Origin: an uncultured Flavobacteriaceae bacterium
GTDB taxonomy: Bacteria; Bacteroidota; Bacteroidia; Flavobacteriales; Flavobacteriaceae
Length of the DNA stretch: 50,097 bases
Direction: 5' to 3'
Assembly: GCA_929200365.1 (NCBI GenBank)
Contig: CAKMZM010000002.1
Location: 1 to 50,097 of the forward strand
The position numbers and the translations under genes are program-made. The stretch's first letter is position 1, and each line of letters starts with the position of its first letter. Below, piece after piece: positions 33,338-42,695 of this stretch. A model generated the notes under the pieces. That model made no database searches. It was not told the origin of the DNA and saw only the letters and a program-made list of their open reading frames with translations.

Positions 33338-33433
33338 TAATTTAGATTTGGTATAAATAAAATTTGTCAAGTTCGTTTTGATGAATATATTTGCGAACGA
33401 TACAAGTAAGCTATTTAAATTAAGTCTAAATAA
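33338..33433 (+). promoter_or_regulatory. Promoter (TTTG 33363, TATATTTG 33386) bracketed by two 23-bp TTATTTAGA-N5-TCTAAATAA-like boxes (putative Fur/iron boxes)
   Basis: TAATTTAGATTTGGTATAAATAA (33338-33360) and CTATTTAAATTAAGTCTAAATAA (33411-33433). Confidence 0.6.
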
Positions 33434-33436
33434 AAA

Positions 33437-34615
33437 ATGAAAAATAAATTAACACTATTATTATTAACTATTACTTTTATAAGTTTTGCTCAAACTAAGC
33501 AGGATTCTATACAATTGGATCCTCAAAAACAAATTAATGCTGCACAGCGTATCCTATCTGGTAATTATGGTAAGGCTGTAACTGTTGGAGTATACGGAGA
33601 AATGCTATATAATCAGCCTGAAGGAGACAATGGAGAGTTAGATGTACAACGATTAGTGTTACTTTTTGGATATAGATTTAGTGACCAGATACAATTTGTA
33701 ACAGAAGTTGAACTTGAACATGTGGAAGAAGTTTTTGTTGAACAAGCTTTTGTTAATTATAATGTAGCTGATAATGTAAACCTTCGTGGAGGTTTGATGT
33801 TGGTGCCTATGGGACTTATCAATGAGTTTCATGAGCCTACTACATTTAATGGTACAGAACGTCCTGCTGTTGATAATGTTATTGTTCCTACAACATGGAG
33901 AGAACTTGGTATTGGAGTTAATGGTAGATTTAATAACCTTTCTCTAGGGTATCAGGCTTATATTTTTAATGGTTTCAAATCTACAGAGTCTGACGGCGAA
34001 GGAGGAGTAAATGGGTTTTTAAAAGGATCAAATGGGTTACGTAGTGGTCGCCAGAAGGCAATCCAATCTACAATCGATAGCCCTACTTTTTCAGTAAAAT
34101 TAGACTACTATGGATTGCCTGGATTACGATTAGGTCTATCTGGATATTTTGGTCAAACACAAGCCGAAGATGATGTAGAGGATCAGAATGGAGCTAATGT
34201 TGGTATTTCTATGCTTGGTTTTGATGCTAGATATGCATATCAAAGGTTTACCGCCAGAGGACAATTTATTTATACATCACTATCTGGTACAGATGACTAT
34301 AATTCATTAACAGATAGAGATTTGGGTAGTGCTTTAATGGGATGGTATGTCGAAGGAGCATTTAACCTATTGCCTATGATAAATAAACAAAAACTATTTG
34401 CTTTTGCACGTTATGAACAATATGATACTCATGCAAGTACAGCGGGTAGTCTAGAACGAAACGATGCATATAATCGTACTGATATTACTACTGGATTAAG
34501 TTATCATATCACTCCTGGTGTGGTACTAAAAGGAGATTATCAATTTAGAGATAATGCCTTATCTAGTAATGATGTTAAGAACCGACTAAACTTCGGTATT
34601 GGAGTTTGGTTCTAA
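33437..34615 (+). CDS. Outer-membrane beta-barrel, OprO/OprP porin-like
   Basis: Signal peptide, EVELEH..VEQAF, INEFHEPTTF, IVPTTWRELG, terminal FGIGVWF. Confidence 0.8.
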   Translation: MKNKLTLLLLTITFISFAQTKQDSIQLDPQKQINAAQRILSGNYGKAVTVGVYGEMLYNQPEGDNGELDVQRLVLLFGYRFSDQIQFVTEVELEHVEEVFVEQAFVNYNVADNVNLRGGLMLVPMGLINEFHEPTTFNGTERPAVDNVIVPTTWRELGIGVNGRFNNLSLGYQAYIFNGFKSTESDGEGGVNGFLKGSNGLRSGRQKAIQSTIDSPTFSVKLDYYGLPGLRLGLSGYFGQTQAEDDVEDQNGANVGISMLGFDARYAYQRFTARGQFIYTSLSGTDDYNSLTDRDLGSALMGWYVEGAFNLLPMINKQKLFAFARYEQYDTHASTAGSLERNDAYNRTDITTGLSYHITPGVVLKGDYQFRDNALSSNDVKNRLNFGIGVWF

Positions 34616-34644
34616 ATATTTAATGATTGAAAAGTGTTTTTTCG

Positions 34645-34673
34645 CCTCATAGGTTTTGCCATGACCTATGAGG
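34645..34673. repeat. REP-type palindrome, copy 3
   Basis: CCTCATAGGT-tttgccatg-ACCTATGAGG, same family as 12476 and 16342. Confidence 0.7.
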
Positions 34674-34741
34674 TTTTAACGCTTTATAAATTTGGTCTGT
34701 TTTTTGTTTTATTGATAATGAGTTTTAAATACTTTTGCAAG

Positions 34742-35278
34742 ATGAAAATTAGAATGTCTATTATTCTTTTATTAGTAGTGACGTTTATACTAACTTCATT
34801 TACCAATCACTCTAAGAAAATAGAGAAAAAAGTAAATAAAGAAATCACTACTTATTTTGGTACAGAAGAATTTTCTACCGAAGTTATAAAAATTTCTGAT
34901 GTAGATAATAGAGCTGTAAAATCAGAGTTTGGAAAAGACAATCTGTTAAAGATAGTAAACGCAGATGGTTTATTGGGCTATGCATATATTGGTAATGCTC
35001 CAAGTAAGACTGCTACTTTTGATTATCTAGTAATTTTTGATAAAAATTTTTCTATTCTAAGATCTAAAGTGTTAATTTATAGAGAAGAATACGGTGGAGA
35101 GATAGGAAGCAAGCGTTGGTTAAAACAATTTGTAGGAAAATCAATGAATGATCAAATTAATTTCCCTGGAGATATTGATGGAATCTCTGGAGCTACAATT
35201 TCTGTAAGATCGATGACCAAAGCTTTAGATATTTTATTAAAAAGTATAAACGCATTACACTTAAACGAAGTAATTTGA
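34742..35278 (+). CDS. Extracytosolic FMN-binding (ApbE-flavinylated) protein
   Basis: YREEYGGEI, WLKQFVGK, DGISGATIS flavinylation motif; TACTTTTG at 34730 favours ATG 34742/34754 over the track's GTG. Confidence 0.88.
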   Translation: MKIRMSIILLLVVTFILTSFTNHSKKIEKKVNKEITTYFGTEEFSTEVIKISDVDNRAVKSEFGKDNLLKIVNADGLLGYAYIGNAPSKTATFDYLVIFDKNFSILRSKVLIYREEYGGEIGSKRWLKQFVGKSMNDQINFPGDIDGISGATISVRSMTKALDILLKSINALHLNEVI

Positions 35279-35766
35279 TGCAGTTTCATGGTTTAATACA
35301 TACTTTCCCCAAAGAAATAAAATTATTTATAGGAGTTTTTATTATTGTTTTAAGTGTAGGGTATTTTACGGGATTATTATTTGTTAATGAAACTTCATCT
35401 ACATACCCTAATGGGATTGAAGAGAATTATTTAGGTAATGAAGATGATGAGAATGCAGAAATAATGAAGTTTAAAAAAGGGGAAAGAGAAATGCTTACTA
35501 TTATCCATACCCATATTTTATCAATGTCATTTATCTTCTTCTTATTGGGAGGAATACTAGCAGTAACTTCAATACATAAAAAGCTAAAGCTTTTTTTGAT
35601 GATAGAACCCTTTTTGTCAATTATTTTAACTTTTGGAGGTATTTACTTTTTATGGATAGGGGTAAGTTGGATGAAATATGTAGTAATATGCTCTGGGATA
35701 TTAATGACAATTACTTTTAGTATAGGGACTGCCTTAGTATTTTGGCAACTATTTCAAAAAAAATAA
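35278..35766 (+). CDS. Conserved 4-TM inner-membrane protein with HTH(I) His pair
   Basis: Hydrophobic segments, IIHTHILSMS; TGATG overlap with FMN-binding gene. Confidence 0.75.
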   Translation: MQFHGLIHTFPKEIKLFIGVFIIVLSVGYFTGLLFVNETSSTYPNGIEENYLGNEDDENAEIMKFKKGEREMLTIIHTHILSMSFIFFLLGGILAVTSIHKKLKLFLMIEPFLSIILTFGGIYFLWIGVSWMKYVVICSGILMTITFSIGTALVFWQLFQKK

Positions 35767-35872: not shown

Positions 35873-36385
35873 ATGAATGAGTTTTTTGAGTATGACAGTA
35901 TGATTTCTAAGTATTACAAAAAAGCATCTACTCATGCATTGCCGTTAATGTCTTGGGAGTTTTATGGAGAATATCGTACAGTATTAGAAAGTTTTAAAAA
36001 AGACTTTAATATCTTAAAGAAGATTACCAAAAACTGGAATTTTAAAAGAAATTATTATCAAGAATTTATCCATGAACAATCTGTTATTGTTATTACAAAA
36101 CCCAACCTTAAAATTGTATTTGTTTCGCAAAATATTCAAAAACTAAGTGGATATTTACCTAATGAAGTTATAGGCAACTCTCCAAAGATATTTCACGGGG
36201 AAGATACTTGTGCTATAACATTATTAAAAATGAAAAATGCAGTAGACAACAAAATTCCTTTTGAAGTGTCGATTATAAACTATAAAAAAGATAAAACACC
36301 ATATGTTTGTCTGATAAAAGGATTCCCAGTTTTAAATAAGCAAGGTAAGTTGGTAAATTATATTGTTTTTAAGAGAATTACCTAA
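35873..36385 (+). CDS. Stand-alone PAS-domain protein
   Basis: IVITKP..IVFVS..LSGY..NEVIGNSPKIFHG, INYKKDKTPY. Confidence 0.85.
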   Translation: MNEFFEYDSMISKYYKKASTHALPLMSWEFYGEYRTVLESFKKDFNILKKITKNWNFKRNYYQEFIHEQSVIVITKPNLKIVFVSQNIQKLSGYLPNEVIGNSPKIFHGEDTCAITLLKMKNAVDNKIPFEVSIINYKKDKTPYVCLIKGFPVLNKQGKLVNYIVFKRIT

Positions 36386-36907
36386 AAGAATCTTTTATTG
36401 GCTTTGGTTTCAGTTTGGATCTGAAGCTTTATAATTTCATTACAATGCAGGGTGATTTTTAACAAAACCCATATTTATTGTTCCACGGGTCTTCCATTTT
36501 AGATAAACTCGTCACTTTTTTGCGCTCATTCGTCACAAATGCGTTAATAAAATTTTATATATACCTTTTTTCTTTTTTGTTTGCTTCAACAAAGAAATAA
36601 TGAAGATTAAAGGCATTTCTTCGTAAAAATGACACTAAAGGGAAAACAATAGGGGCACATTCTTTTTTTAAACTTTCCATCATCAAAATTCTTATAATTT
36701 TTAATAGCATTAAAGCATTATTTAGGATGGATTATTGTGTTAATAATTTGGATGATAAATTATTGGTGGACTTAAAATTGTGTAAAATAGATTCTTAAAG
36801 AATCATTTATAGTCTAACAAGAATGAAACTAAAATAAAAACAGATTTCCATTATCTGAGAAGATATTAAAAATGATGTTTAATTGATAAGTTGGTATTAA
36901 AAAAGTT

Positions 36908-37774
36908 ATGATAAAAATATGTAAATCAATAAGCAAAAATAAGTGGTTTCAAAACTCTATTACAATTGCTATTTTAGTTGCAGGTGTTCTGGTAGGTATT
37001 GCTACTTACTCTGAGTTTTCTGAAAAGCACAAAGCCATATTAGAGGTGTTAAATCAAATAATTTTAGGTGTTTTCATTATAGAGATTGTAGTGAAGATCA
37101 TTGCAGAAGGCAAAAAACCTTGGCTCTATTTTACAGATGGATGGAATATTTTTGATTTTATAATTGTAGCAGCTGCATTTCTTCCTTTTGGAGGAAGCTC
37201 AATAGCAATATTACGTTTACTCCGTTTATTAAGGGTTTTAAAGCTTATAAAAGCATTACCAAAACTTCAAATGTTAGTAGGAGCGCTATTAAAGAGTATA
37301 CCTTCTATGGGGTATGTTTCTATCTTATTAATGTTGCTTTTTTATATTTATGCAGTAGCTGGTGTGTTCTTCTTTTCAGAAAATGATCCAATACATTTTC
37401 AAGATTTACAAAGATCAATGCTATCCTTATTTAGGATAGTAACATTAGAAGATTGGACAGATATTATGTACATAAATATGTTTGGGTGTGAGAACTATGG
37501 GTATGATGGAAATATGAATCTTTGCATAAATTCGCAAAGTTCTTTAGCACTCTCGGTTACTTACTTTGTGTCATTTGTTCTTATCGGCACTATGATTTTT
37601 TTAAACTTATTTATTGGGGTTATTATGAATGGTATGGACGAAGCAAAAAATGAGATGTTACTTGAAAGTCAAGTGAAATCTAGAGAAAAAGACACAAGTA
37701 TTGAAGATGTAGAAAGTAAAATATCCGAACTACAGAAATTGTTGGAGTTGTATAAAATTCAACAAAAAAGATAA
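36908..37774 (+). CDS. Bacterial voltage-gated cation channel (BacNav-like, Ion_trans)
   Basis: WNIFDFIIV, S4 LRLLRLLRVLKLIK, filter TLEDWTD, S6 LNLFIGVI, C-terminal coiled coil. Confidence 0.92.
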   Translation: MIKICKSISKNKWFQNSITIAILVAGVLVGIATYSEFSEKHKAILEVLNQIILGVFIIEIVVKIIAEGKKPWLYFTDGWNIFDFIIVAAAFLPFGGSSIAILRLLRLLRVLKLIKALPKLQMLVGALLKSIPSMGYVSILLMLLFYIYAVAGVFFFSENDPIHFQDLQRSMLSLFRIVTLEDWTDIMYINMFGCENYGYDGNMNLCINSQSSLALSVTYFVSFVLIGTMIFLNLFIGVIMNGMDEAKNEMLLESQVKSREKDTSIEDVESKISELQKLLELYKIQQKR

Positions 37775-37976
37775 TTAAACTATATGATTATTCCGATGTT
37801 TCTCCTAAAACCTTGTAGTACTTGATTTTTTTATCCTGTAATAAAATTTTTATGAAAATCAAAGCCTAGTGCGTCTAGTAATTACAAGAGGTTTTGGCTA
37901 ATGAAAAATTATTGGAACTTAACGTACAGGCATATTAAACTAAATCGTATTCAATAATTAATTTAAACTAATAAAC

Positions 37977-38447
37977 ATGGGGTTTTTTAACAAAGTGAAA
38001 AATAAACTAGGTATTGGTGGTGTAAAAGTTACACTAGAAGTACCAGGGCAAGTATCTAAAGAAAGTAAACAAATAGAAGGAAAAGTTATTTTAACCACCA
38101 AAAGCGAACAAGAAATTGTTGAAGTTGAAATCAAATTGATAGAAGAATTTACAACAGGACGAGGAGATGATAAAAGAACAAAAGATTATACTTTAGGATC
38201 TGTTAAGTTTTCTGATACATATGGGATTAAGCCTGAAGAAGTAAAAGAAATCCCTTTTATGTTGCCTTTTGAATTATTAAAATCTAACGCAGATTCACTG
38301 GCAGAAAAAGGAGGAGCCTTAGGAGCAATCGGAAAAATGGGGAAATTTGCATCCAACGAAAAATCAAAATACAAAGTAGAGGCTAATGTAGATGTAAAAG
38401 CAGCCGCTCTTGATCCATCTGATGAAAAGAATATTAGATTAGTATAG
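37977..38447 (+). CDS. Spo0M-like (arrestin-fold) protein
   Basis: MGFFNKVKNKLGIGGVKV, IEGKV, EIPFMLPF, VDVKAAALDPSDE. Confidence 0.7.
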   Translation: MGFFNKVKNKLGIGGVKVTLEVPGQVSKESKQIEGKVILTTKSEQEIVEVEIKLIEEFTTGRGDDKRTKDYTLGSVKFSDTYGIKPEEVKEIPFMLPFELLKSNADSLAEKGGALGAIGKMGKFASNEKSKYKVEANVDVKAAALDPSDEKNIRLV

Positions 38448-38661: not shown

Positions 38662-39165
38662 ATGATAAAAGAAATAGAACAGCTATTAAATGATCAGATA
38701 AAATATGAAGCAAAAGCCTCTGCACAATACCTTTCAATGGCTAGTTGGGCAGATACCAGAGGATATAATGGTATAGCAGATTTTTTTTATATGCAATCAG
38801 AAGAAGAACGAGTGCATATGACTAAATTGGTCAAATTTATTAATGAACGAAGCGGAAATGCTGTTATCCCAGCAACAGAGAAACCTAGAGATGATTTTAA
38901 ATCACTGATGGAGCTTTTTGAAACATTCCTGAAAAGTGAAGAGTTTGTTACAGAAAAAATTAATAATGTTATATATGAGTGTCTAAAGCATAAAGATTAT
39001 AATGTACATAATTTTATGCAATGGTATGTAGCAGAGCAGCTAGAAGAAGAGGCAACAGCACGAACATTATTAGATAAACTTAAAATTATTGGCGACGATA
39101 AGTCTGGTCATTATTTATTTGATAGAGATATCAATACTTTTCAAGCAGCAGAAGAGCCTAAATGA
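38662..39165 (+). CDS. ftnA: Non-heme ferritin
   Basis: LNDQIKYE, YLSMASW, QSEEERVHM, FMQWYVAEQLEEE ferroxidase residues. Confidence 0.92.
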   Translation: MIKEIEQLLNDQIKYEAKASAQYLSMASWADTRGYNGIADFFYMQSEEERVHMTKLVKFINERSGNAVIPATEKPRDDFKSLMELFETFLKSEEFVTEKINNVIYECLKHKDYNVHNFMQWYVAEQLEEEATARTLLDKLKIIGDDKSGHYLFDRDINTFQAAEEPK

Positions 39166-39192: not shown

Positions 39193-39222
39193 AGAGATTC
39201 CTTTTTTTGGAATCTTTTTTTT
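39193..39222 (+). terminator. Ferritin terminator
   Basis: AGAGATTCC-T7-GGAATCTTT + T run. Confidence 0.75.
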
Positions 39223-39223
39223 A

Positions 39224-39258
39224 TATTTTTGTACTTTATTTAGATTCAATAAAAATTA
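39224..39258 (+). promoter_or_regulatory. -7 element followed by putative Fur/iron box
   Basis: TATTTTTG (39224-39231) then TTATTTAGATTCAATAAAAATTA (39236-39258). Confidence 0.6.
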
Positions 39259-39263
39259 TAGTA

Positions 39264-39407
39264 GTGCAAAGTTCAGGTACTCCATCATTATATTCTCCTT
39301 GTCCGGCTGTCAATTGTGAAATAGCCTGTGGAGGGAAAAAGAAAAAATGTTGTAAAAAATATAAAAAGAAAGGAAAATCTAATTGTAAAAGATGCCCTAA
39401 GATTTAG
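39264..39407 (+). CDS. Small Cys/Lys-rich protein with FhuF-type C-C-X10-C-X2-C motif
   Basis: GTG start: VQSSGTPSLYSPCPAVNCEIACGGKKKKCCKKYKKKGKSNCKRCPKI; own promoter and terminator. Confidence 0.7.
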   Translation: MQSSGTPSLYSPCPAVNCEIACGGKKKKCCKKYKKKGKSNCKRCPKI

Positions 39408-39451
39408 TTTATAGGGTTTTATAATATATTTTGAATGTTAATCCATTCTCG

Positions 39452-39488
39452 AAAAACGGAAATACCTACAGGTGTTTCCGTTTTTTTT
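39452..39488 (+). terminator. Terminator after the Cys-rich small gene
   Basis: AAAAACGGAAATACCT-ac-AGGTGTTTCCGTTTTT + T run. Confidence 0.8.
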
Positions 39489-39706
39489 ATAAAAAAAATG
39501 ATTATTCAATGTAGGGTGTTTTTCTATATAACTGTATTATAAGTAGAAGTCGAATTAAAGGTTGTAGTAAATAAGAGTAAGCATATAGCCTTGTTCGGTA
39601 TAAAAATTGTTCTTTTAATAATTATTTAGACTTAGTACGTATTATGACCTTCAAACGAATTTTAAGTACTAATTAACAAATAAATAGTTACTATAAAGGT
39701 AGATTT

Positions 39707-40153
39707 ATGGATATGAAAAAGATTATTTTAGCTGTATTTCTGGTATTTTCAGGAATTAATTGGGTAAGTGCTCAGGAGTGGCTAACCAATTTTGAAGAAG
39801 CAAAAAGAATCGCACAGGAAAATGATAAAAATATAATTTTAGTGTTTGCTGGTTCAGATTGGTGTGCACCCTGTATTAAATTAGAGAAACAGATTTTACA
39901 TACAGAGGAATTTCAGGGATATGCCAAGCAACATTATGTATTATTAAAAGCAGATTTTCCACGTAAGAAAAAAAACCAATTACCCGAAGCTTTACAGCAT
40001 CAGAATAATGCATTGGCAGAGAAATATAATAAAAGCGGAGGTTTTCCATTAGTTGTTGTTTTAGATAAAAATGGTAAAAAAATGGGAGCGATTGGTTATA
40101 AAAAAGTAACACCAAATACATACTTAGAAATGCTAAGTACAATGATTAAATAA
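39707..40153 (+). CDS. Periplasmic thioredoxin-like protein
   Basis: Signal peptide, FAGSDWCAPC, LKADFPR, GFPLVVVLD. Confidence 0.9.
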   Translation: MDMKKIILAVFLVFSGINWVSAQEWLTNFEEAKRIAQENDKNIILVFAGSDWCAPCIKLEKQILHTEEFQGYAKQHYVLLKADFPRKKKNQLPEALQHQNNALAEKYNKSGGFPLVVVLDKNGKKMGAIGYKKVTPNTYLEMLSTMIK

Positions 40154-40157
40154 TATT

Positions 40158-41141
40158 TTGAGATTTTTCTTTACCCTTTTATTCCTTGCTACGATAAGTA
40201 GTAGTTTTTCACAACAAATATATAAGCGTACCCTAAAATTGATGGGAAGTCGTTTTGATATTACTGTTGTCGATAAAGATAAAACAACAGCTAATCAATA
40301 CATAGATATTGCCGTCGAAGAAATTCAGAGAATCGAAAAATTGATTTCTTCGTGGGATAAAAACTCTCAAACTTCTTTAATTAATAACAATGCAGGGATT
40401 AATCCAGTGAAAGTTGATGCAGAACTCTTCGACCTAATATTTAGAGCTATTCAGATTTCTAAATTAACAGATGGCGCATTTGATATTAGTTATGCATCTA
40501 TGGATCGAATTTGGAAATTTGATAATAGAATGAAAGAAATGCCCTCTGAGGAAGAAATTAAAGCATCAGTAGCGAGAGTAGGGTACAAGTATATTGTTTT
40601 AGATAAAAAGAAATCTACAGTATTTCTAACCCAAAAGGGGATGAAGATAGGGTTTGGAGCTATTGGTAAAGGATATGCAGCAGATAAAGCCAAAAACCTC
40701 TTAATAAGTAAAGGAGTAAAAGCTGGAATCATAAATGCTTCTGGAGATATGAATACCTGGGGAAAACAACCCGATGGGAGTGAGTGGAAAGTTGCAATTA
40801 CCAATCCTTTGAATAAAAATAATGCATTTGCGCTATTACCAGTAGTAGAAAAAGCAGTAGTGACTTCTGGTAATTATGAAAAATACGTAATTTTAGATGG
40901 TAAACGGTATTCTCATATCATTGATCCCAGAACAGGATATCCATCTACTGGTGTTGTAAGCGCTACAGTTTTTGCTCCAAAAGCTGAGTTGGCAGATGCA
41001 TTGGCAACTTCTGTTTTTGTGATGGGAATTGAAACGGGATTAAATAGAATCAATCAATTAAAAGGGATTGAATGTATTATAATTGATGATCAGGGAAATA
41101 TTCATACCTCTGATCATATTAAGATAAATAATAATAAATAA
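40158..41141 (+). CDS. apbE: FAD:protein FMN transferase ApbE
   Basis: LMGSRF, TDGAFDIS, GAIGKGYAAD, VTSGNYE, HIIDPRTGYP, ADALATSVFVMG. Confidence 0.95.
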   Translation: MRFFFTLLFLATISSSFSQQIYKRTLKLMGSRFDITVVDKDKTTANQYIDIAVEEIQRIEKLISSWDKNSQTSLINNNAGINPVKVDAELFDLIFRAIQISKLTDGAFDISYASMDRIWKFDNRMKEMPSEEEIKASVARVGYKYIVLDKKKSTVFLTQKGMKIGFGAIGKGYAADKAKNLLISKGVKAGIINASGDMNTWGKQPDGSEWKVAITNPLNKNNAFALLPVVEKAVVTSGNYEKYVILDGKRYSHIIDPRTGYPSTGVVSATVFAPKAELADALATSVFVMGIETGLNRINQLKGIECIIIDDQGNIHTSDHIKINNNK

Positions 41142-41166
41142 CAATAATTCTTATAAAACCTACTTT

Positions 41167-41379
41167 ATGAATAAGTTGATACCAATACTTTTAGTACTAG
41201 TACTTTCTCTTAACTCATGTGTAGCTGTAAAAGAATACGAAAAAGTACAAATCAATGATCCTGATATGGAATTAGCGCTCAAAAAAATTGATCGTTTTGA
41301 GACTAATTTTCAAGTATATAGAGAATCTGCTGCTGGAGCAAATGGAGGAAAAACAGGTGGAGGATGTGGTTGTAATTAA
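41167..41379 (+). CDS. DUF4266 lipoprotein
   Basis: Lipobox LNSC, VKEYEK..INDPDM, terminal GGGCGCN. Confidence 0.9.
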   Translation: MNKLIPILLVLVLSLNSCVAVKEYEKVQINDPDMELALKKIDRFETNFQVYRESAAGANGGKTGGGCGCN

Positions 41380-41447
41380 GAGGTAATACCCCTCTTAAGC
41401 AAAGAATTTAAAAAACATACTAAAAACTTTTATAAAGTAAAAATCTT

Positions 41448-42695
41448 TTGAGAAAAACTCCCTTAATAATAGCATTATTATCTATAGCGATTGTAAGCGC
41501 ACAGGAGCAGCAACAGGATGATACAACAACCTACAAAAAAAGAGTATTAGAATCTGCCGAAGTAGATTTTTTGATGAGTTATTATACTCAGGATGGTGAT
41601 AATGCTTCGGTTACAGGTGGTGTAGGTACAGAAGAGCTCACAGATATTACACCTACAATAGTAGTTTCTATCCCATTAAATGACGATGATGTATTAACTA
41701 TAGACGCAGGAATATCTGCATATTCATCGGCTTCTTCTAGTAATGTTAACCCTTTTGATGGTAATGGTGCGGCAAACCCTTTTGTAGCTTCTTCAGGAGC
41801 ATCAAAAAAGGATGTGTTAACAACAATATCAGGAAATTATAGTCATAGTAGTGATGATCGAAATAATGTATGGTCAGCCAATGTTGCGGTTGCAACCGAG
41901 TATGATTATTTTTCTATAGGCTTTGGTGGTAGTTATTCAAGAATTTTTAATGAAAAAAATACAGAATTAAGTGTAAAAGCCAATGTATTTCTAGATACAT
42001 GGAAAGCAATATATCCCTCAGAATTAAGGGATCAACCTACATTTACGAAGTTTGATGATGAATCTCGTAATTCGTATTCTGTAGGATTAGGATTTTCACA
42101 AATTTTGTCTAAAAGGTTACAAGGATCTCTTTCATTAGATTTTATTCAGCAGGAAGGTCTTTTGTCAACACCGTTTCAACGCGTACAATTTGCCGATGTG
42201 GTCGATGTAATTATTGAAGAATTTACATATGGTGATGATGTAGAAAGATTGCCAGATTCTAGGTTTAAAATAGCTGCAGGCGGAAGATTACATTATTATA
42301 TTAATGAAATTTTTGTACTGCGAACATTTTATAGATATTATATAGACGATTGGGGCATTAATTCACATACCGCAAGTATAGAAATACCCATTAAAATCAC
42401 AGATAAATTTACACTGTATCCTTCATATCGTTTTTATACACAAACAAAAGCAGATTATTTTGCACCATTTAATCAACACCTGTCTACGCAGCAATTCTAT
42501 ACTTCGGATTATGACTTGTCTGATTTTGATGCGAATCAATATGGTTTTGGTATTAGTTATACCGATATTTTTACAAAATTCCATATCTGGAAACTTGGTT
42601 TAAAAAGTATCGATTTTCGATTTAGACAATATGAACGTAACTCTGGACTTAGCTCTAGTTTATTTTCAGGAGGATTTAGTTTTATAATGGATTAA
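41448..42695 (+). CDS. DUF3570 outer-membrane beta-barrel protein
   Basis: SYYTQDG, SAYSSASS, EYDYFS, ERLPDSR, YRYYIDDWGINSHT, YTSDYDLS; TTG start. Confidence 0.88.
   Translation: MRKTPLIIALLSIAIVSAQEQQQDDTTTYKKRVLESAEVDFLMSYYTQDGDNASVTGGVGTEELTDITPTIVVSIPLNDDDVLTIDAGISAYSSASSSNVNPFDGNGAANPFVASSGASKKDVLTTISGNYSHSSDDRNNVWSANVAVATEYDYFSIGFGGSYSRIFNEKNTELSVKANVFLDTWKAIYPSELRDQPTFTKFDDESRNSYSVGLGFSQILSKRLQGSLSLDFIQQEGLLSTPFQRVQFADVVDVIIEEFTYGDDVERLPDSRFKIAAGGRLHYYINEIFVLRTFYRYYIDDWGINSHTASIEIPIKITDKFTLYPSYRFYTQTKADYFAPFNQHLSTQQFYTSDYDLSDFDANQYGFGISYTDIFTKFHIWKLGLKSIDFRFRQYERNSGLSSSLFSGGFSFIMD

Follow-up and report, generated by a model that had tools for sequence, protein, structure and literature searches.

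How ferritin iron is released is poorly understood outside the bacterioferritin-Bfd pair (PMC12363616, in excerpt). In that pair, according to excerpts of PMC8945002, bfd adjoins bfrB, is regulated separately, and is induced by iron starvation; the action of the Bfd protein depends on heme, and FtnA is not among its partners. In the ferric-siderophore reductase FhuF, a separate small domain has a single loop that supplies all four ligands (bioRxiv 2023.07.04.547673, in excerpt), and fhuF is under Fur control (PMC8068687, in excerpt). Here, we analyzed a stretch of 50,097 nucleotides from an uncultured Flavobacteriaceae bacterium (the window), in which an earlier note had pointed to a Cys-rich microprotein encoded next to a ferritin gene. 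We tentatively propose that this microprotein is a Fur-repressed stand-alone FhuF-type [2Fe-2S] electron shuttle that would release ferritin iron. New here are the variable spacer of its Cys motif, a tabulation of how gene, box, and ferritin co-occur, the carriers without Ftn, and the minimal Acidobacteriota forms.

Results

The microprotein ORF occupies positions 39264..39407 of the plus strand, starts with GTG, and encodes 47 amino acids, with a variable N-terminal half followed by a conserved Lys/Cys core. Its cysteines stand at positions 13, 18, 22, 29, 30, 41, and 44, the last four forming C29-C30-x10-C41-x2-C44 at the C terminus. The earlier description of an ORF of about 47 codons with this motif and three further cysteines was accurate, as was the statement that the product is highly basic (12 Lys and 1 Arg, pI 9.75, net charge +12). 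By itself, the bare CC-x10-C-x2-C pattern is weak evidence; a six-frame scan of the own genome gave 10 occurrences, and the reversed control gave 2. With the fuller CCxx[YF]-x5-8-CxxCP, the counts drop to one and zero.

We compared the 22 core codons of the window with those of the 28 equal-length loci among 30 and found 251 synonymous and 58 non-synonymous changes, the differences at codon positions 1/2/3 being 52/40/283. Because of this conservation, with its third-position bias and excess of synonymous changes, the ORF is a real gene whose core is under purifying selection. Of 27 Aquimarina loci, 23 share the position of the GTG, and an ATG start stands 24-32 codons ahead of the CC in 26 of 30 family loci. 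Aquimarina also provides the nearest named relatives (best 96%), and ferritin lies upstream of the microprotein in all 27 of its loci. That the ORF is untranslated, being a conserved RNA or a product of chance, is barely credible. The GTG start and the absence of the exact protein from a collection of 15 billion sequences would fit such a reading; it is opposed by the codon bias, by the start and stop conserved among relatives, and by the more than 140 relatives given by gene callers. A conserved RNA was rejected on account of the codon changes, which are mostly synonymous; the coding RNA has no folding signal (z -0.2). A contig from an RNA library (metatranscriptome) spans 39273-39414 with 3 differences; as a contig only, silent on strand, level, and regulation, it gives a weak hint of expression. 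Lys codons of the family core (30 loci) are 40% AAG as compared to 17% in the own genome, in a set of genomes that differ in GC, and long A runs would thus be interrupted.

The core, KKKK-CC-KK-Y-KKKGKSN-C-KR-CP (39336..39398, plus strand), contains a predicted FhuF-type Fe-S loop (C29, C30, C41, C44). In all 147 family proteins, we found the CC, a [YF] at +3, and the final CP; the lysines of the core are nearly invariant. Only this core, KxxCCxx[YF]-x5-8-CxxCP, is the conserved part of the family, and the N-terminal half is not conserved. The spacer from CC to the next Cys is 10 residues in 79 proteins, 9 in 61, 8 in 6, and 11 in 1. Across 58 class-wide loci, it is 8 in 30, 9 in 16, and 10 in 12, and exact spacing was therefore rejected as evidence.

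The three N-terminal cysteines, present in the window protein as the earlier note had said, are dispensable and not a family feature, with none in 33 of the 147 members, one in 34, two in 38, three in 39, and more in 3. This count bears on a non-redox function, in which the protein would be an Fe/Zn chaperone or metallothionein-like buffer, plug a pore, or direct ferritin to degradation as an adaptor. The up to seven cysteines of the window protein point in this direction, its charge complementarity and linkage to ferritin would suit any ferritin-binding role, and degradation also opens ferritin stores (PMC12363616, in excerpt). We nevertheless consider such a function improbable, given the members devoid of extra cysteines, the fixed four-Cys pattern with its conserved aromatic residue and proline, the lack of a metallothionein family match, and a box of the Fur type. 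The metallothionein-like role that the earlier note had offered as its alternative was rejected on the first of these grounds.

Protein searches returned 29 and 123 relatives, nearly all of 32-77 aa. A pattern search identified carriers in 88 of 150 Flavobacteriaceae genera (reversed control, 4), after G048 and five second matches had been dropped for a stop codon, for being out of frame, or for not being Lys-rich. Profile matches were found in 107 of 401 genomes of the class, almost always in single copy, which is a lower bound because the profile missed members found by the pattern. The loose DNA pattern was too noisy for counts and served only to pick 40 loci by eye (Lys-rich, in frame), to which earlier profile matches were added; L043, L192, and weak matches above E 0.002 were treated as chance, and the fusions P0046, P0149, and P0150, which look like read-through or frameshift calls, were set aside. 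In the Acidobacteriota, the phylum of a Blastocatellia record, 7 of 151 genomes matched, 6 of them with the motif, and two of the forms have only ~23 aa, so the core alone suffices. At the other extreme, some subfamilies extend the N terminus with a long Lys-rich stretch. Longer versions (P0084, P0119, and L184, a Poseidoniales archaeon record) carry an N-terminal zinc-ribbon-like CxxC...CxxC, and one locus (L132, in G913) has two copies ~4 kb apart in a family otherwise single-copy.

Literature searches, with subscription journals outside their coverage, found no paper on the family among those listed; one database record bears the automatic name "ferric iron reductase protein FhuF", and the other named ones are "hypothetical". 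The AlphaFold2 model of the microprotein reached pLDDT 64 and pTM 0.38, and Foldseek and VIA searches with it gave no match. A search by sequence for a solved structure of a relative found none, and an Atlas search with the homologue P0004 returned only "hypothetical protein" clusters, under 0.9. As modeled, the fold of this cluster-free 47-mer is uninformative.

Among NCBIfam families, only FhuF-type models drew matches from two or more members (103, 44, and 7 of 119). With an E limit of 1, 103 of the 119 matched TIGR03950, the best at 1.1e-7 and none reaching the cut-off, and 44 matched TIGR03951, while PF11575 (FhuF_C) was matched by 5 and by nothing in the own genome. No member passed a Pfam or NCBIfam family cut-off; the window microprotein scored 10.5 bits as compared to the FhuF-type curated cut-off of 137.9. 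Escherichia coli FhuF shares with the core the CC, the Tyr at +3, the basic flanks, the C-x2-C, and the C-terminal position. A direct comparison of FhuF with the family profile gave a probability of only 6.7%, so the likeness may reflect either homology or convergence. A search of longer proteins gave two matches among the candidates listed, neither of them FhuF-like. Thus, of the "exact" FhuF-type motif claimed earlier, the FhuF-like loop holds, as the weak TIGR03950 matches indicate, and the exactness does not, a spacer of 10 being specific to a lineage within a range of 8-11. The motif and the family matches favor an electron shuttle, against which stand this spacer range, the missed cut-offs, and the low probability of the direct comparison. 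We consider it likely that the loop binds an Fe-S cluster; the four cysteines could instead bind Zn or one Fe.

Immediately upstream lies a non-heme ferritin gene (38662..39165, plus strand, ATG at 38662; 167 aa; PF00210 E 5.7e-35, best NCBIfam match non-heme ferritin), whose subunit has a net charge of -10 and a pI of 4.9. It ends in a predicted intrinsic terminator (39193..39223, plus strand; hairpin 39193-39217 and T tract, z -5.2), and the same hairpin layout follows ferritin in most of the loci L002-L027. Next come a Bacteroidota -7 promoter element TAnnTTTG (TATTTTTG, 39224..39231, plus strand; consensus from PMC9723704, in excerpt) and a predicted Fur box (39238..39256, plus strand) that matches the published Riemerella consensus used for scoring (PMC5609570, in excerpt) at 14/19 positions. 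A second predicted terminator stands 3' of the ORF at 39451..39490, within 39445-39500 (plus strand; 16-bp stem, z -6.7), and is not kept as such in all relatives. All elements of the separate transcription unit described in the earlier note were thus found, and a sigma-70 promoter scan gave nothing relevant. In most family loci, the -7 element stands 12-17 nt ahead of the box start. Transcription is expected to start ~7 nt past the -7 element, under the box. The order is -7 element and then box in the window's subfamily and the reverse in other subfamilies, the two being close together in each case, and both positions of the box would be expected to repress.

We found a box of at least 14/19 upstream of 31 of 42 family loci as compared to 123 of 2487 gene starts of the own genome, and in 14 of 40 class-wide loci as compared to 17 of 254 other genes of the same loci. 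It persists where ferritin is not adjacent: among the 20 fetched of 28 unlinked carriers, the box was kept in 9 of 12 that have ferritin and in 1 of 8 that do not. From the predicted box, the microprotein is likely repressed by Fur at high iron. In the F. psychrophilum transcriptome supplements (PMC9723704, files 1, 3, 4, and 6), no family member was found after ftnA and a peptide search gave no match; of the chelator rows, 29 of ~373 were covered. The same supplement (THC0290_0927) places after ftnA a convergent 83-aa "probable ferredoxin" that is not dipyridyl-induced.

A Fur-controlled basic peptide may also act as an iron-sparing regulator resembling the Fbp proteins, which would bind RNA or DNA through its Lys runs and be switched by iron or redox state at its Cys loop, with ferritin merely a regulon neighbor or a target. 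Fbp proteins have 29-54 aa, are basic, and are Fur-regulated (PMC10730256, in excerpt); the net charge and nearly invariant lysines of the microprotein, the Lys-rich N termini of some subfamilies, and its usually solitary position with its own promoter outside the Flavobacteriaceae would all suit such a role. However, no family match to Fbp or to any nucleic-acid-binding domain was found, the consistent family matches are FhuF-type, and the transcript lacks a structure signal, and we regard this regulator as unlikely.

Elsewhere in the window, two Fur-type boxes of 15/19 each (33340-33358 and 33413-33431) precede a trio of porin-like, FMN-binding, and membrane-protein genes (33437-35766), which adjoins ferritin in several relatives and is likely an iron-regulated envelope redox/uptake cluster, as judged from its genes and boxes. 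Between this trio and ferritin (35873-38447) are genes for a PAS-only protein, an Ion_trans channel, and a Spo0M-like protein, the latter two occurring in 2 and 1 of 27 Aquimarina loci. The top Fur-box scores of the own genome (C22 (L147), C144, C41, C264, and C45) include one ahead of a second ferritin (16). The other top-scoring genes we take to be NqrA-like (17), superoxide dismutase-like (15), and receptor-like.

Ferritin lies directly upstream on the same strand in 60 of the 88 Flavobacteriaceae carriers and in 25 of the 30 best loci. Among 150 Flavobacteriaceae genomes, 80 have both genes, 8 the microprotein only, 19 ferritin without the microprotein pattern, and 43 neither, and 72 of the 81 genomes with the window's ferritin subtype also carry the microprotein; because kin and linked genes are not independent, these figures overstate the co-occurrence. 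Dps is the best ferritin-family protein of the 8 carriers without ferritin. At E 1e-20, this query matched no ferritin in 51 of the 150 genomes, and in the 10 of these that were checked Dps was the best. The own genome (89% complete) encodes two PF00210 proteins over the cut-off, both Ftn-like.

Class-wide, no more than 8 of 58 loci had ferritin within 1.5 kb, and outside the Flavobacteriaceae it was near in only 3 of 34 (10-kb fetch), once upstream and twice downstream; there, the microprotein is mostly solitary, with its own promoter. The two downstream cases come from a feoB island in which the ferritin is a distant one and the gene order differs (L141, L142: feoA-feoB-small Cys protein-microprotein-DUF6686-like-ferritin-(DUF4856/imelysin-like)), which includes an uncharacterised 124-126-aa gene. 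In Blastocatellia, the microprotein follows a ferritin-like gene (L185/L186; 1 of 6 motif-bearing loci and a sister genome). In the ferritin tree, L147 and L185 have long branches, and any count of independent linkages drawn from it is tentative.

Three of the six motif-bearing Acidobacteriota loci follow TonB-dependent, siderophore/FecA-like receptors (L187, L190, L191), and in L190 the microprotein is followed by a Cys_rich_CWC gene and fur; in L189, it is divergent from superoxide dismutase. These receptors, together with the FhuF-type loop, the adjacent feoB (L141, L142), HmuY (L113), and DUF4856-imelysin genes (L127), and the 8 genomes that retain the microprotein without Ftn, would fit a shuttle of broader scope, a redox domain detached from FhuF that reduces incoming ferric iron chelated by siderophores or citrate, ferritin being at most one of several clients. 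Nevertheless, the siderophore-binding palm domain of FhuF is missing, and in Flavobacteriaceae the microprotein tracks ferritin rather than receptors; we judge this general shuttle unlikely too, slightly more so than the regulator. One subclade (L196, L200, L210, L211; 4 of 20 loci) lies behind a thioredoxin-reductase-like flavoprotein and a 2Fe-2S ferredoxin and has no box.

In other genera, the downstream genes change from locus to locus, and many are convergent. In the window, they form a thioredoxin-ApbE-DUF4266-DUF3570 operon (39707-42695), for which the earlier note had suggested that the microprotein might sense iron. Among the 27 Aquimarina loci, apbE follows in 9 and DUF3570 in 14, with apbE missing from 5 of these 14; of 30 family loci, 2 have apbE no farther than 1.5 kb away. 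An iron sensor for this operon, or a leader peptide of the downstream gene, agrees with the order seen in the window and part of Aquimarina; it is very improbable and was rejected in view of the strong intervening terminator and the variable genes beyond it.

Discussion

The evidence strongly places the microprotein in iron homeostasis. In the mechanism that we tentatively favor, Fur would repress the gene while iron is plentiful, and the four invariant cysteines would bind an FhuF-type [2Fe-2S] cluster. We infer that the Lys-rich surface docks on the acidic heme-free ferritin and that an NADPH-flavin reductase supplies electrons; the cluster would then pass them to Fe(III) in ferritin, and Fe(II) would be released. 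In lineages other than the Flavobacteriaceae, this module likely acts on further ferric substrates as well. We prefer this electron shuttle because the layout repeats that of bfd-bfrB, because a search of the own genome (89% complete) gave no stand-alone Bfd, and because a +12 peptide suits a -10 ferritin subunit. It is further supported by the enrichment of Fur-type boxes, by the linkage and co-occurrence with ferritin, by the recurrence of this linkage with a distant ferritin after feoB and in Blastocatellia, and by the subclade behind a flavoprotein and ferredoxin. Against it, the linkage is mostly one family's, carriers without Ftn exist, as do 19 ferritin genomes with no match to the microprotein pattern, half of the motif-bearing Acidobacteriota loci follow receptors rather than ferritin, and membership in one regulon, even side by side, does not imply that two proteins bind each other. 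Because Bfd requires heme and shows no binding to FtnA (PMC8945002, in excerpt), the electron route would also have to differ here.

A broader and more doubtful possibility is that widespread, undescribed FhuF-type [2Fe-2S] mini-ferredoxins of 23-65 residues are the missing equivalent of Bfd, induced through Fur at low iron and reducing the core of heme-free ferritin directly, with the same near-minimal loop serving uptake receptors in other lineages. For iron release from heme-free ferritin, the family would offer one concrete candidate, in a phylum that is prominent in the sea and in soil. Should the 23-residue forms carry a cluster, they would rank among the smallest [2Fe-2S] proteins in nature and could serve to model the unusual coordination of FhuF. 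Even if the role in ferritin fails, the family appears to be an unnamed iron-regulon member in more than a quarter of the sampled Bacteroidia genomes.

Like Bfd (PF04324), the microprotein is encoded by a small gene beside an iron-storage gene, predicted here to be regulated separately, and both have a set of four cysteines. Unlike Bfd, it stands next to a heme-free ferritin rather than a heme bacterioferritin, and it has no sequence or Pfam match to Bfd, PF04324 being matched neither by the ORF nor among 46 and 119 family members; identity with Bfd was rejected for these reasons. The Cys pattern of Bfd also differs from that of the microprotein. Bacterial metallothioneins are small and Cys-rich, and the microprotein resembles them in both respects; it differs in having only four cysteines conserved across its family, a Fur-type box, and no family match. 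With FbpA, FbpB, and FbpC of Bacillus subtilis (PMC10730256, in excerpt), it has in common that it is tiny and basic, with Fur regulation predicted here; it differs in its invariant four-Cys loop and in matching none of these families.

Unlike FhuF and the ferric-siderophore reductases, the microprotein lacks a siderophore-synthetase-like palm domain, has 23-65 aa across its family as compared to ~260, combines a poly-Lys loop with a spacer of 8-11, and scores below all cut-offs; for want of the palm domain and of scores reaching the TIGR03950, TIGR03951, and PF11575 cut-offs, a ferric-siderophore reductase as such was rejected. What it shares with them is the C-terminal CC-xx-Y...C-x2-C loop and, by prediction, a Fur-type box. 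The microprotein is best described as a stand-alone FhuF-type loop.
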